The position numbers were made by a program, and so were the translations under genes. A model generated the notes under the pieces. It did not search any database and was not told where the DNA came from. It worked only from the letters and a program-made list of their open reading frames with translations. DNA of 43,851 nt, from the IMG/VR virus record IMGVR_UViG_2531839640_000007; one strand, given 5' to 3'. Below, in pieces: positions 2,686 through 43,851 of the stretch; position 1 is the stretch's first letter, and each line of letters starts with the position of its first letter. Origin of the DNA: a virus (taxonomy: Duplodnaviria > Heunggongvirae > Uroviricota > Caudoviricetes).

Positions 2686-2724
2686 CGCAAAGTCTCCGCA
2701 ATTACACGCAAGAAAAAACCGCCA

Positions 2725-2892
2725 TCAGGCGGCTTGGTGTTCTTTCAGTTCTTCAATTCGAATATTGGTTACGTCTGCATGTGCTATCTGCGCCCACAGC
2801 ATCCAGTGGTCATAGCAGTCGCTGATGTTCTCGGCTTCGATAACTCTGTTGAATGGTTCTCCATTCCATTCACCTGTGACTCGGAAGTGCAT
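2725..2892 (-). CDS. Small hypothetical protein, 55 aa (MHFRVTGEWNGEPFNRVIEAENISDCYDHWMLWAQIAHADVTNIRIEELKEHQAA), xis-adjacent small ORF as in lambda
   Basis: Hand-translated minus-strand ORF below the 60-aa track cutoff; co-oriented with pL operon. Confidence 0.4.
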   Translation of the reverse strand: MHFRVTGEWNGEPFNRVIEAENISDCYDHWMLWAQIAHADVTNIRIEELKEHQAA

Positions 2893-3134
2893 TTATCATC
2901 TCCATAAAACAAAACCCGCCGTAGCGAGTTCAGATAAAAGAAATCCTCGTCAGTGCGAGGATGCTGTTCATTGCTGCTATACACTTTTTTGCTCTCAACG
3001 TAAGCGGTAGCCCATTCTGTTGGGTTGGTGCAGTTGCTTTTAGGAAATGCTATTTACCCCTTAAATTTCGGCTGAAAGAGCTAAAATCCATGCAAAAAAT
3101 TTACGCAATTTTGTGTATTATTGTGCAGTAAGTA

Positions 3135-3737
3135 ATGAGCTATTTTCTGCGCAAAAAATGGATGGTAAATTTGTCCGGGTCAGGAAAAATTTTATGGGCG
3201 CTAAACATGAAAAAAGATTCGTATCCTTATTTGATTTGCATGACAGTTTCAGGGCTGATCTTTATTTTCCTTTTCTTCTGGTGGCGGGCAGATATCTACA
3301 GGGTCACGTTTCTTAATCAGAGTATATCCCACTATTACATTCTGTTTAGCATGGGAATAGCTTTTCTGTTATCTCTGTTTTGGGTTAAGAAGGGGATAGT
3401 AAAACAAAGAGGCTGGAAGAGTCTGTCAGCATACCTTAAGGTTTATGCAGGGATGTGCATATTTGCTGGATTTTTTCTGATTATACCCCTTACGACACTA
3501 ACTTATTTTTTGCCTGGAGAGACATCGTCTTATGTTGCACCGTATCGGTATACTTCCGGTAGTTCAAAAAGTTGTTCTGGAGCTGAGGTGGATGACCCCG
3601 AACTACATGAGAATATTCGCATTTGCTATCCGTATGGCAATTATGAGTACGATAATATTATCTATGTTGAAAAGAAAATTAATATATTAGGTGCGGTAGT
3701 GACATATGCACAGACCGCGCGTGATGATACTGAATGA
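3135..3737 (+). CDS. Hypothetical membrane protein, 200 aa, three predicted TM helices plus Cys-containing C-terminal domain; AT-rich opposite-strand cargo gene
   Basis: Long ORF on strand opposite to pL operon; hydrophobic segments LICMTVSGLIFIFLFFWW, YYILFSMGIAFLLSLFWV, VYAGMCIFAGFFLIIPLTTLTYFL; low GC; start codon uncertain (alternative Met at MVNLSG or MKKDSY). Confidence 0.6.
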   Translation: MSYFLRKKWMVNLSGSGKILWALNMKKDSYPYLICMTVSGLIFIFLFFWWRADIYRVTFLNQSISHYYILFSMGIAFLLSLFWVKKGIVKQRGWKSLSAYLKVYAGMCIFAGFFLIIPLTTLTYFLPGETSSYVAPYRYTSGSSKSCSGAEVDDPELHENIRICYPYGNYEYDNIIYVEKKINILGAVVTYAQTARDDTE

Positions 3738-3771
3738 TATAGTATATAGCGGGCAAGTTTTAGTTAATTTA

Positions 3772-3800
3772 TCGAGGTAATATAATTTACCTCGACTCGT
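3772..3800 (+). terminator. Hairpin TCGAGGTAA-tataat-TTACCTCGA followed by T-rich tract; possible terminator of the membrane-protein gene
   Basis: 9-bp perfect inverted repeat 35 nt after the stop codon. Confidence 0.35.
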
Positions 3801-3947
3801 TTGTTCTGGTATTAATATTTCGCTTTACGACCGATTTTTATCTGATGATATCATGCGGTTTTCATATACTGACTTACTGTCTTTTCTCCGTTAGCGATTT
3901 TCTCCTGCTCAGCGATGATTTTATCTTTGGCTTCTAGTTAATTTCGC

Positions 3948-4169
3948 TCACTTCGAACCTCTCTGTTTACTGATAAGCTCCAGATCCTCCTGGCAACTTG
4001 CACAAGTCCGACAACCCTGAACGACCAGGCGTCTTCGTTCATCTATCGGATCGCCACACTCACAACAATGAGTGGCAGATATAGCCTGGTGGTTCAGGCG
4101 GCGCATTTTTATTGCTGTGTTGCGCTGTAATTCTTCAATTTCTGATGCTGAATCAATGATGTCTGCCAT
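3948..4169 (-). CDS. TraR/DksA-family C4 zinc-finger protein, 73 aa (lambda orf73-like)
   Basis: CxxC...CxxC motif (CCECGDPI ... CRTCASCQ); matches recollection of lambda Orf73 TraR homologue. Confidence 0.75.
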   Translation of the reverse strand: MADIIDSASEIEELQRNTAIKMRRLNHQAISATHCCECGDPIDERRRLVVQGCRTCASCQEDLELISKQRGSK

Positions 4170-4267
4170 CTTCCATTAATCCCTGAATTGTTGGTTAATA
4201 CGCTTGAGGGTGAATGCGAATAATAAAAAAGGAGCCTGTAGCTCCCTGATGATTTTGCTTTTCATGT

Positions 4268-6370: not shown

Positions 6371-6667
6371 TTATACCTCTGAATCAATATCAACCTGGTG
6401 GTGAGCAATGGTTTCAACCATGTACTGGATGTGTTCTGCCATGCGCTCCTGAAACTCAACATCGTCATCAAACGCACGGGTAATGGCTTTTTTGCTGGCC
6501 CCGTGGCGTTGCAAATGATCGATGCATAGCGATTCAAACAGGTGCTGGGGCAGGCCTTTTTCCATGTCGTCTGCCAGTTCTGCCTCTTTCTCTTCACGGG
6601 CGATCTGCTGGTAGTGACGCGCCCAGCTCTGAGCCTCAAGACGATCCTGAATGTAATAAGCGTTCAT
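6371..6667 (-). CDS. gam: Gam RecBCD inhibitor, short GamS form (98 aa) with AGGAGG RBS; upstream extension of long form is frame-disrupted
   Basis: Protein recognised as lambda Gam C-terminal 98 aa ([21 protein letters not shown]...). Confidence 0.9.
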
Positions 6668-6742
6668 GGCTGACCTCCTGAAAATGGCTGTGAAAATATC
6701 GCCCGCGAAATGCCAGGCTGATTAGGAAAACAGGAAAGGGGA

Positions 6743-7033
6743 TTAGTGATTCAGGCCGTTACCGCGTCCGTCGAGAAAAACTTCCACGAGCAAATCACGG
6801 GTATAAGTGCGCTCGATGCCGCGATGCAGATAAAGCCGTCCGCGTAAATTAGCTGATGCAGTCCAGGTACCATCTTTGTGTTTGACCAGCATTCCTGGCA
6901 TGACCGCACCTCGATTAACGGTCTGCGTTCCATAATGTTGATGAACCATAAAAACTCCTGCCCGTAAGCTGGGCTGCTGAACATATAGAGACTTCTGCGC
7001 GTATTCAGGCGGTGGATGGCCGCCGGTTGTCAT
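6743..7033 (-). CDS. Hypothetical protein, 96 aa, first ORF downstream of the inferred pL (position where N sits in lambda); no arginine-rich motif
   Basis: ORF in operon orientation between gam and the pL operator region; no family recognised. Confidence 0.4.
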
Positions 7034-7239
7034 AACTAAGCCGCCTCGTTGAAGCGACTAAGGTATGAAATGTTGAGTTAATTTCAGCTGGTCACACCGA
7101 CGTTCACGCGTCCGTTTCACCCCTCGCACTCCCCGAAGCCTGCTGAAATTCAAACTGCGGATCTAAGCGGTCATCGCAACGGTGAATCAGGTAGTTGCCG
7201 TATCGTTGTGTTGTTGCGATGAACTTATTTAAAACTATA

Positions 7240-7259
7240 GTTGTTTTATCGTCAACAAC
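7240..7259. promoter_or_regulatory. Candidate OL operator: inverted repeat GTTGTT-ttatcgtc-AACAAC within a cluster of GTTGTT half-sites (7205-7290)
   Basis: Same GTTGTT-N8-AACAAC architecture as palindrome at pR; lies upstream of leftward early genes. Confidence 0.5.
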
Positions 7260-7402
7260 AAAAGTTGTTTTATTGGTTGTTTTAGATATAACTGGTTGTA
7301 TTTAGGATGGATTTATTTTGTGACTTGAATCGCATAGCGATAACTGAAGCGAGGTTATGGTGGTTTTTTAACGGTGTGTGTGTGATGAGGGGAGGGCAAA
7401 AG

Positions 7403-7426
7403 AAAACCCGGCACGGTGACCGGGAT
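7403..7426 (-). terminator. Hairpin CCCGG-N8-CCGGG followed by UUUUCUUUU on minus strand; likely terminator of repressor transcript
   Basis: GC stem plus T-run about 120 nt downstream of repressor stop. Confidence 0.45.
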
Positions 7427-7545
7427 TCTTACGCCGTTAGGTAAAGATATTATTGCGGTGGCTTAATATTACTACCTAGAGCAAAGATAGGAATTAGTTC
7501 TTTACTGAATGAGCACAATGCCCAGTTGATAATTTTTAATTGGTA

Positions 7546-8235
7546 CTACCCATGCTTCCTATATGTCTGCGGCATGCTCCCAATAACCTTACCGAAGATG
7601 AACACCCGGTTCATCTCGTCTTTCTCGATCGGGTCCCACGGTGAGTAGCTTTTGTTATCAGAGATGACCAGCAGCTTATCCTTCATCATTTGCAGGCGCT
7701 TTACATGGGCTGTGTCGTCGTACAGAAACGCATAGATACCATCACCGTCGAAAGATTTAACTGTGATATCAACGAACAGCAGATCACCTGGTTCGATCGT
7801 TCCTGACATGCTGTCACCACGCACGTTAATGATGCGGATATTTTCCGCCTTCCTACCATCGAACATGTGACGAGCATCGTCAAACGAGTACTCAACCGAG
7901 CGTAGAACTTCTACAAACTCACGGTTGATGACTCCCGGCCCAGCACTGACTTCTATATCAAGAACGTCAATCTTGAAGTATTTGGAATGGCTGACAGTTG
8001 ATTGTATTGGTTGCACTGTACTGTCTGACATATTTCCAACGCCAGAAGATAACCATTCTGCGCGCACACCCAAAGCGTTCGCGATCTCCACGATTTTAGT
8101 TGTTTGATTAGCTTTCCCTGTTTCGATTTTCTGAATAGCAGCCTGGCTAACCCCGACCAAATCCCCAAGCGCCTTTTGTGTAAGGCCTCGCGCTAATCTG
8201 GCTTCTTTAAGTCTTTCTGAGAGTGTTGTTTTCAT
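7546..8235 (-). CDS. CI-like prophage repressor, HTH (XRE) N-terminal domain plus S24 LexA-like autopeptidase C-terminal domain, about 229 aa; not lambda or 434 immunity
   Basis: HTH motif LTQKALGDLVGVSQAAIQKIETGK; S24 motifs GDSMSGT and KRL; divergent from cro-like gene across operator region; start taken at MKTTLSERL. Confidence 0.85.
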   Translation of the reverse strand: MKTTLSERLKEARLARGLTQKALGDLVGVSQAAIQKIETGKANQTTKIVEIANALGVRAEWLSSGVGNMSDSTVQPIQSTVSHSKYFKIDVLDIEVSAGPGVINREFVEVLRSVEYSFDDARHMFDGRKAENIRIINVRGDSMSGTIEPGDLLFVDITVKSFDGDGIYAFLYDDTAHVKRLQMMKDKLLVISDNKSYSPWDPIEKDEMNRVFIFGKVIGSMPQTYRKHG

Positions 8236-8276: not shown

Positions 8277-8302
8277 ATGGTTGTTGACTAAAAAACAACC
8301 AT
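8277..8302. promoter_or_regulatory. Candidate OR operator: perfect palindrome ATGGTTGTT-gactaaaa-AACAACCAT overlapping a TTGACT -35 element (putative pR)
   Basis: 9-bp perfect inverted arms; TTGACT at 8284-8289 and TTTAAT about 16 bp downstream; located between divergent repressor and cro-like genes. Confidence 0.6.
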
Positions 8303-8340: not shown

Positions 8341-8571
8341 ATGAACCCAGCTATCAAAACAGCGATCAATATCGTTGGTTCACAAAAGAAACTGGGCGCT
8401 GCTTGCGAAGTTTCACAGCAGGCCGTCTATAAGTGGCTTCACAACAAAGCAAAGGTATCCCCTGAACATGTCGGCAGCATTGTTACGGCTACTGGTGGAG
8501 TAGTGAAGGCATACCAGATTCGCCCGGATCTTCCGAAGTTGTTTCCACACACCGAAAAGAACGCAGCTTAA
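8341..8571 (+). CDS. Cro-like small HTH regulator, 76 aa
   Basis: First gene rightward of operator region, GGAGG RBS, HTH-like segment QKKLGAACEVSQQAVYKWL. Confidence 0.7.
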   Translation: MNPAIKTAINIVGSQKKLGAACEVSQQAVYKWLHNKAKVSPEHVGSIVTATGGVVKAYQIRPDLPKLFPHTEKNAA

Positions 8572-43267: not shown

Positions 43268-43851
43268 TGGCATTCAGAATGAGTGAACAACCACGGACCA
43301 TAAAAATTTATAATCTGCTGGCCGGAACTAATGAATTTATTGGTGAAGGTGATGCATATATTCCGTCTCATACAGGTCTGCCAGCAAACAGTACCGATAT
43401 TGCACCGCCGGATATTCCGGCAGGCTTCGTGGCTGTTTTCAACAGTGATGAGGCATCGTGGCATCTCGTTGAAGACCATCGGGGTAAAACGGTTTATGAC
43501 GTGGCTTCCGGCGACGCGTTATTTATTTCTGAACTCGGTCCGTTACCGGAAAATGTTACCTGGTTGTCGCCGGGAGGGGAATATCAGAAGTGGAACGGCA
43601 CAGCCTGGGTGAAAGATGCAGAAGCAGAAAAACTGTTCCGGATCCGGGAGGCGGAAGAAACAAAAAACAGCCTGATGCAGGTAGCCAGTGAGCATATTGC
43701 GCCGCTTCAGGATGCTGCAGATCTGGAAATTGCAACGGAGGAAGAAACCTCGTTGCTGGAAGCCTGGAAGAAGTATCGGGTGTTGCTGAACCGTGTTAAT
43801 ACAACAACTGCACCGGATATTGAATGGCCAACAGTACCCATTATCGAATAG
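43267..43851 (+). CDS. tfa: Tail fibre assembly protein Tfa, 194 aa
   Basis: Recognised lambda Tfa ([37 protein letters not shown]...). Confidence 0.95.

Follow-up and report, generated by a model that had tools for sequence, protein, structure and literature searches.

The window, that is, the whole stretch of 43,851 nucleotides that was analysed, is a complete lambda-like prophage of the DLP12/Bievrevirus kind; across positions 6600-7600 it is 99.7% identical to Escherichia phage PhiR34_1. Its annotated relatives carry int, exo, bet, gam, cI, cro, a YdaT-type 'cII', O, P, ren, Q and the lambda-type structural genes, and an N gene is found in none of them. In the window, gam (6371-6667, minus strand; Pfam Gam, E 2e-64) and the repressor gene cI (7546-8235, minus strand; HTH_3 and Peptidase_S24) flank a gap of 878 bp (6668-7545), which bears out the compact spacing of about 0.85 kb given in a preliminary description of this DNA; cro (8341-8571) and a cII-like gene (8641-9180) follow on the plus strand. 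The same description held that N, kil, cIII, ral and rex are all unrecognisable here, and this stands for N, cIII, ral and rex but not for kil. As it had supposed, neither a canonical N homologue nor a nut boxB was found in the left arm: the interval 6668-7545 contains no N-like ORF and no boxB, with Kil as its sole family match. No arginine-rich ORF turned up except those overlapping known genes, and the early proteins of the window are all assigned to families other than N.

The only ORF in the gap with a family match, at 6743-7033 on the minus strand, had been described as a 96-aa ORF at the 'N position'. Homology searching identifies it as Kil (phrog_294, E 1e-38, with the alignment running from residue 20; PF27398) and so removes it from the candidate antiterminators; its length also has to be revised. 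On sequence comparison, the true start of kil is the internal ATG at 6949, and the 96-aa form is an N-terminal over-extension of a 68-aa FtsZ/cell-division inhibitor of the Rac/phi80 type (6743-6949, minus strand). The phrog_294 profile covers residues 1-68 of this 68-aa product (E 1.3e-37), so that the match is full length. An AGGAG lies 5 nt before ATG 6949, and in Klebsiella, Enterobacter, Citrobacter, Shimwellia and other genera the Kil relatives have 67-68 residues and start at a Met that matches this ATG. Database relatives carrying PF27398, 'cell division inhibitor', number 149, the Kil alignment (A2) has 21 invariant columns, and PGAP/RefSeq annotates kil as 207-nt genes in E. coli O157:H7 and 536. 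The 28 codons upstream of ATG 6949 fall within a leader segment, module B (see below), which in a Scandinavium prophage (L034) is found with the frame shifted and before a different gene; these codons are therefore leader and not protein. The product of the window is thus an ordinary member of the Kil/KilR family (PF27398, phrog_294; Rac and phi80 type) with no notable difference, and the assignment corrects a recurrent mis-annotation in which kil is called as a protein of 96-139 aa or as hypothetical.

Upstream of kil, pL and its oL operators occupy 7227-7300 on the minus strand, with a -35 element (TTGACG) at 7250-7255 and a -10 element (TTAAAT) at 7227-7232; the operators and promoter that had been placed near 7240 are thus where they were expected. 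The oL operators overlap pL and are of the same ACAAC/GTTGT type as oR (8277-8302, a palindrome). Phages of other immunity types have this operator/promoter block exchanged. In an alignment of six phages of two immunity types, a conserved terminator and a block of about 95 nt are followed by a replaced operator/promoter, and conservation begins again at TCGCAACAAC and continues through kil. In a larger set of loci, at least six unrelated combinations of -35, -10 and operator sequences occur, and in every one AUCG(N)(R)AC stands 6 nt downstream of the -10. Because conservation resumes at this same distance behind at least six promoter sets, we infer that transcription starts at 7220 and that the leader is a module that begins at the transcript start. 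The terminator of this alignment, which ends the cI (immunity) transcript at 7397-7424 (minus strand), was located by a terminator scan and is conserved in the six phages and in four prophages of other genera. It consists of CCCGG..CCGGG and a T-run, and its copies outside Escherichia are in Siccibacter, Citrobacter and Scandinavium prophages (L021, L027, L028 and L029). The approximately 95 nt between it and oL (7300-7396; CAUCACACA..CCGUU.AAAAAACCACC..UUAUCGCUAUGCGAU..) are likewise conserved across immunity types.

The pL leader extends for about 270 untranslated nucleotides before kil, and BLAST divides it into module A (about 7222-7075) and module B (7070-6950). In Scandinavium hiltneri (L034), module A stands behind another pL, and module B follows only after 1.1 kb of other sequence. 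The first part of module A is a 5' framework (7176-7220, minus strand) that begins at the inferred +1 with AUCGCAAC... and forms two small hairpins, a (AUCG..CGAU) and b (ACGG..CCGU). It is conserved behind the six or more promoter types and also precedes put and nutL leaders in related prophages. A 10-bp 5' stem between AUCGCAAC and GUUGCGAU, present in the minimum-free-energy (MFE) structure, was rejected as it is not conserved in other lineages. Module B (6950-7070, minus strand) appears as separate BLAST blocks in L021, L025, L031, L032, L033 and L034; it folds into a 12-pair hairpin (7036-7062) and a GGCGG..CCGCC hairpin, and is in frame with kil yet non-coding. In other genera, module B alone precedes kil or other genes. 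Between module B and kil, L034 encodes a 297-aa protein (3102-3995) that consists largely of tandem GDA(R/W)V(Y/S) repeats.

The remainder of module A is a structured element, here called X, with its core at 7081-7175 on the minus strand, or about +46 to +140 of the pL transcript, as delimited by a covariance-model (CM) match, RNAalifold and homologues. A 17-nt motif of module A (GGGGAGTGCGAGGGGTG) was used to retrieve more than 120 viral contigs, which yielded 43 distinct 131-nt cores in a gapless alignment. The cores sort into an E. coli type, a variant whose 5' part differs, 'class 3' and L034. RNAalifold on a 33-sequence alignment (A3; window coordinate equals 7189 minus the column number) gave two adjacent domains, columns 20-64 (domain I, 7125-7169, minus strand) and columns 65-103 (domain II, 7086-7124, minus strand, from the RNAalifold consensus), and single-sequence MFE folding of the window, class 3 and L034 copies returned the same two. 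Domain I carries the apical loop AAUUUCAG at 7143-7150. Many of the pairs are G-U, which settles that the structured strand is the pL sense strand.

The preliminary description had pointed to inverted repeats in this leader. The repeat AATTTCAGC (7080-7088) / GCTGAAATT (7142-7150) is indeed present and lies within the conserved structured element, but it is not the best-supported helix. In the RNA, its 5' arm, AAUUUCAGC (7142-7150, minus strand), comprises the domain I apical loop and the first base of the 3' strand of that domain, and its 3' arm, GCUGAAAUU (7080-7088, minus strand), is the tail after domain II. The long repeat is invariant, and its support consists of G-U-compatible changes alone, whereas the local hairpin with which it conflicts is 99% paired and shows full compensatory change at two pairs. 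As the main helix (P2, 12 positions), the long repeat was therefore rejected, since it lacks compensatory change and cannot form together with the covarying local stem. Because covariation favours a local hairpin whose loop holds one of the arms, the long-range pairing can represent no more than a pseudoknot or alternative fold. What remains of the repeat is a 6-bp pairing between UUUCAG in the domain I loop and CUGAAA in the tail; this helix (columns 41-46:102-107) is 100% paired, with two G-U-compatible changes and zero compensatory ones, and a loop-tail pseudoknot in X is accordingly a possible feature of the modelled fold.

With the pseudoknot included, the fold has 99.5% of cells paired, compared with 29-42% for slid partners, and compensatory changes occur at four base pairs; the covarying pairs include A3 columns 33-52, 34-51 and 78-89. 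In a shuffle control, none of 500 shuffles reached the observed values for percentage paired, for cells changed on both sides or for the covariation score, and 14 of 500 reached the number of pairs changed on both sides; further pair types showed no excess (353/500). The covariation comes from about three independent lineages (E. coli type, 'class 3' and Scandinavium), so each compensatory pair stands for one or two events. X also has a conserved G-rich core that includes GGGGAGUGCGAGGGG, and its 17-nt motif is invariant across lineages with wholly different flanks. The folding energy is no better than that of shuffles (z -1.3 for the leader, -0.02 to -1.9 for the core), and the significance of the leader therefore rests on conservation and covariation rather than energy. 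A check of the leader for RNA structure and covariance, as the preliminary description had proposed, thus finds a conserved, covarying fold in X but a leader that as a whole is no more stable than its shuffles. Two further candidates in this region were set aside. A hairpin enclosing the GACCGCUUAGA loop (P1) was not counted as evidence, its register varying between lineages, and a 31-aa arginine-rich ORF with a TTG start inside X (7058-7153, MNFSRLRGVRGVKRTRERR...) was rejected as a mini-N: it has no SD, it varies non-synonymously, and in class 3 and L034 a UAA stop follows after 12 codons.

The CM of X (R1) matched the window at 7075-7188 with 141.9 bits, its only credible match there. No second copy in the right operon was found in the window, either by pattern or by CM with filters off, and the next best match (22 bits, 40858-40951) was discarded as it lies inside a 939-aa tail-fibre ORF. 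X occurs exactly once per locus in 100 viral loci (1 Mb), in 16 cultured coliphages and in 2210 of the 5426 complete E. coli genomes, O157:H7 included, and is unannotated in all of these genomes; the E. coli copies are 95-100% identical. Among kil-bearing prophages from the reference genomes of other species, one in 27 has it (L034). Rfam 15 gave no match to X at its gathering-score and E-value thresholds; the put RNAs of HK022 and HK639 are missed as well, which makes Rfam uninformative for antiterminator RNAs. A paper search by the X sequence string found nothing, the prophage sRNA papers that were found concern other loci, and the mEpimmI N-like system is unrelated. A viral scan with TTGAATTTCAGCAGGD returned nearly all chance matches and, beyond these, only copies with an intact G-rich motif, and a scan of a single metagenome with GGAGTGCGAGGGGTGB likewise returned nearly all chance matches. 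Neither scan brought new variants, and the diversity of X thus remains at about three lineages.

Comparison of raw leaders revealed that the position of X is a slot that can be filled in three ways. The same 5' framework and the same GUCAG junction are followed by X in the window, 4A7, L034, L117, L143, L126 and L100; by put in HK639 and in two Siccibacter prophages (L021, L027); and by nutL, comprising boxA and a boxB hairpin, in L028 and L030, where the next gene encodes an N-like protein (phrog_271). The GenBank record of HK639 lists a 'putL-like antiterminator RNA' just after pL, in the left operon alone, with terminators between put and kil. The activity of this put is taken from that annotation and is reportedly described in the primary HK639 paper. 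Class 3 X loci match HK639 almost exactly in pL and in the opening ~55 nt of the leader, L116 among them sharing the promoter itself, and the sequence that follows put in HK639 (ACGAKUUACCAGCAGCUCUUUGCGAGGGGCUG...) is the sequence that follows X in L117, L058 and L139. The pL operons of HK639 and L117 are collinear, with shared arms of 57 nt and 40 nt that are each 95% identical; between these arms, HK639 has put (79 nt) and L117 has X (99 nt).

A put CM (R2), built from HK022 putL, HK022 putR and HK639 putL, reached at best 12.4 bits anywhere in the window and had no match in the 100 X loci. Conversely, no X was found in put-bearing loci, R1 being blank on HK022 and HK639. Among 138 X-bearing sources, searches with three N types found no intact N. 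An N-like pseudogene of 23 codons (MTNFIAHNSVTRRYLKRGELMAK*) does lie in L084 (10718-10816), about 400 nt downstream of X, where it comes after N-leader remnants and is fused to the flank found behind put in HK639; such a remnant is the pattern expected if X made N dispensable. In L034 (1860-2236), and at the equivalent places in L116, L143, L120 and L084, X is followed by a strong SD and a 3-codon mini-ORF (AUG AAG CAC UAA), and then by ~400 nt that contain no long ORF and are partly homologous to the nutL-N leader of L030. R2 also gave 93 bits at L021 2423-2504 and L027 1843-1924, directly after pL in these Siccibacter colletis prophages; judged by sequence, both appear to be additional put RNAs of the HK022 type, here outside E. 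coli phages.

The put RNAs of HK022 and HK639 resemble X in several respects. They, too, occupy the pL-leader slot of an N-less lambdoid phage, consist of two adjacent stem-loops in ~80-100 nt and have terminators later in the operon; moreover, HK639 and the X contigs share both flanks, and put is annotated in the left operon of HK639 alone just as X is a single copy on the left. Members of the put family read through terminators in cis and independently of other factors, and mutations in the zinc-binding domain encoded by rpoC block this activity. However, X and put have no detectable sequence or covariance-model similarity: put is marked by GAACGGC..GUCGG..GGCGGG.UCAGGA..CAAU and two stems, whereas X has GGGGAGUGCGAGGGGUG, GACCGCUUAGA and the possible loop-tail pseudoknot. 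X thus has the location of the HK022-type put family, in the early leader of an N-less lambdoid phage, but not its homology, and because it falls outside this family, it would constitute a new one with a put-like role. The lambda-type pair of nutL and N takes the same position behind the same 5' framework in L028 and L030, and X has a possible boxA-like remnant at that place; unlike these loci, the window contains neither a boxB hairpin nor an N gene. The Bacillus EAR element, a structured leader RNA that is possibly pseudoknotted and acts in cis on RNA polymerase, embodies the same concept as X in an unrelated organism and context.

A terminator scan of the pL operon places one intrinsic terminator at 4229-4247 (minus strand), between the orf61-like and the DksA/TraR-like genes, and three more within 2716-2962 (2943-2962, 2912-2931 and 2716-2735, minus strand), ahead of xis (2467-2685) and int. 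Between X and kil there is no terminator in the window; in L117 a strong one lies there, paralleling the put-kil terminators of HK639. In the pR operon, the scan found no strong intrinsic terminator up to Q, which is consistent with a site for antitermination on the left side alone, as the HK639 annotation has it. Searches of the pL leader found no boxB, nor any boxA when up to 2 mismatches were allowed. On the right, a perfect rrn-type boxA (GCTCTTTAACA, with a C before it) lies at 8585-8595 (plus strand), in the nutR position between cro and the cII-like gene, and no boxB hairpin follows it. By chance, about 0.02 exact copies of this 11-mer would be expected in the window. The motif is confined to this immunity type (PhiR34_1, PhiR47_2, IdasGreatGrand, PhiR5_1 and PhiR26_1) and absent from 4A7-type relatives; it could serve as a Nus-factor anti-Rho site that needs no N, or be a relic. 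Also in the right operon, HK639 (L388) has an 'M3-like RNA' annotated after its cII-like gene (37910-37969); the window has no intergenic space for such an RNA, because the cII-like gene and O overlap at 9177-9180.

How leftward early transcription is antiterminated in this prophage had been raised as a question, with a cis-acting RNA element as one suggested answer. That answer is now the best supported, and is probably right given the equivalence of the slot with put and nutL and the lack of N: X is probably a cis-acting antitermination RNA of pL that is analogous to put and belongs to a different family. According to this model, X would be transcribed about 45 nt after the transcript start and would fold into two adjacent stem-loop domains with the conserved G-rich core and, possibly, a loop-tail pseudoknot acting as a clamp. 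It would then act in cis on its own RNA polymerase, which would read through the intrinsic terminators of the pL operon into xis and int. No N protein would take part in this process, and X would work as HK022 and HK639 put RNA does, though as a different RNA family. The main evidence is positional, X replacing put or nutL in the same slot, and antitermination would be needed because strong terminators lie in the pL operon before xis. We infer the activity of X itself from features that are directly observed, namely its conservation, the support for its structure, its occurrence as a single copy, the lack of both N and put, and the slot equivalence. With the put mechanism taken from PMC9378689, autonomous put-like action on RNA polymerase appears to be the leading sub-model, and Nus-factor-dependent action a real alternative to it. 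More tentatively, X may be an autonomous antiterminator RNA that binds the transcribing E. coli RNA polymerase without a phage protein and renders it terminator-resistant, as a second, structurally unrelated put-like class that is found in ~40% of E. coli genomes and has replaced nutL/N.

Several considerations count against antitermination by X. Its covariation comes from about three lineages, its folding energy does not exceed that of shuffles, it shows no detectable similarity to put, and in the window no terminator stands between it and kil. In many kil prophages of other genera, the stretch from repressor to kil lacks N, put and X alike, and an antitermination device may therefore not be obligatory. 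In addition, xis and int could have a promoter of their own, and positional replacement in mosaic phages usually, though not always, means equal function.

A site like nut, at which X would recruit a protein partner, is an alternative to which we give a low probability. The partner would be either the host Nus factors, as in the rrn-type boxA system, or an unrecognised phage protein. The invariant loop GACCGCUUAGA does sit where boxA is found in nutL leaders, right after GUCAG, and it shares GCUUA with the boxA of L030; the perfect rrn-type boxA at 8585-8595, which occupies the nutR position but has no boxB, points in the same direction. However, CGCUUAGA lacks the CU of the GCUCUUUA core, and the pR boxA is limited to one immunity type. 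As for a phage-encoded partner, only Kil and a cI-type repressor are common to all X lineages within the sequences compared.

It is comparably unlikely that X is an ordinary 5'-UTR device that stabilizes the pL message, blocks Rho loading or tunes the translation of toxic genes such as kil. Such a device would suit an untranslated leader of ~270 nt with a C-rich 5' end and A/C repeats, and kil does follow ~185 nt after X in 113 of 118 loci. In the other direction, X and kil are 1.3-2.4 kb apart in five lineages, and both additional genes and a strong terminator lie in the interval. X tracks pL rather than kil; moreover, the exact replacement of put or nutL by X would be left unexplained. This difficulty recurs, as the 5'-UTR, small-RNA and relic readings all appear less consistent with the slot equivalence than antitermination is.

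There is little to recommend the view that X is a functionless homology arm or a relic at a recombination junction of the immunity region. Conservation begins exactly at the module boundary, as such an arm would have it, and the E. coli copies are 95-100% identical. However, the positions that do vary are complementary to each other, and the invariant 17-nt G-rich core is retained across lineages with completely different flanks. Least probable of all is that X acts in trans, as a small RNA or sponge freed from the start of the pL transcript. X is indeed compact, conserved, structured, situated at the transcript 5' end and very widespread in E. coli. However, it is followed by neither a terminator nor an obvious processing site, its conserved single-stranded part is G-rich and unlike typical seeds, pL is repressed in lysogens, and the paper search with the X sequence found no match.

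On comparative evidence, we regard X as a candidate for a new antiterminator RNA class in a very common group of E. coli prophages. To our knowledge, very few systems of processive antitermination by RNA alone exist, and in phages these are essentially the put family. If X does antiterminate, it would represent a second, independent RNA solution to early-operon antitermination and would explain early gene control and excision in this prophage group, which includes prophages of O157:H7 and UPEC 536. The three occupants of the slot (nutL with N, put and X) would then form a natural allelic series on one scaffold for the comparison of mechanisms, and structural work on E. coli RNA polymerase would gain a new RNA ligand in X. 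For N-less lambdoid phages, 'put-like' expression of the early operons is usually no more than a guess (for example, PMC12315714).

Several other features of these prophages were observed. Within the window's pL operon, a 200-aa ORF on the opposite strand (3135-3737, plus strand) separates the DksA/TraR-like gene from xis and is flanked by hairpins, for example at 3772-3795; this segment is unlike PhiR34_1, and the ORF looks like a membrane-protein moron. Near the right end, IS009 (RF02111, 227 bits; 43610-43808, plus strand) is the sole match in the window at the Rfam gathering score. At the rex position, between cI and the conserved terminator, the window is devoid of cassettes, and its relatives contain defence-type gene cassettes (L002 3831-5259, L007 2048-3464, L266 3043-4644 and L009 1740-3262). 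These include an annotated GevA/GevT toxin-antitoxin system, a pair of an acetyltransferase and an ASCH protein, and a SIR2-family protein, and they look like interchangeable defence morons.
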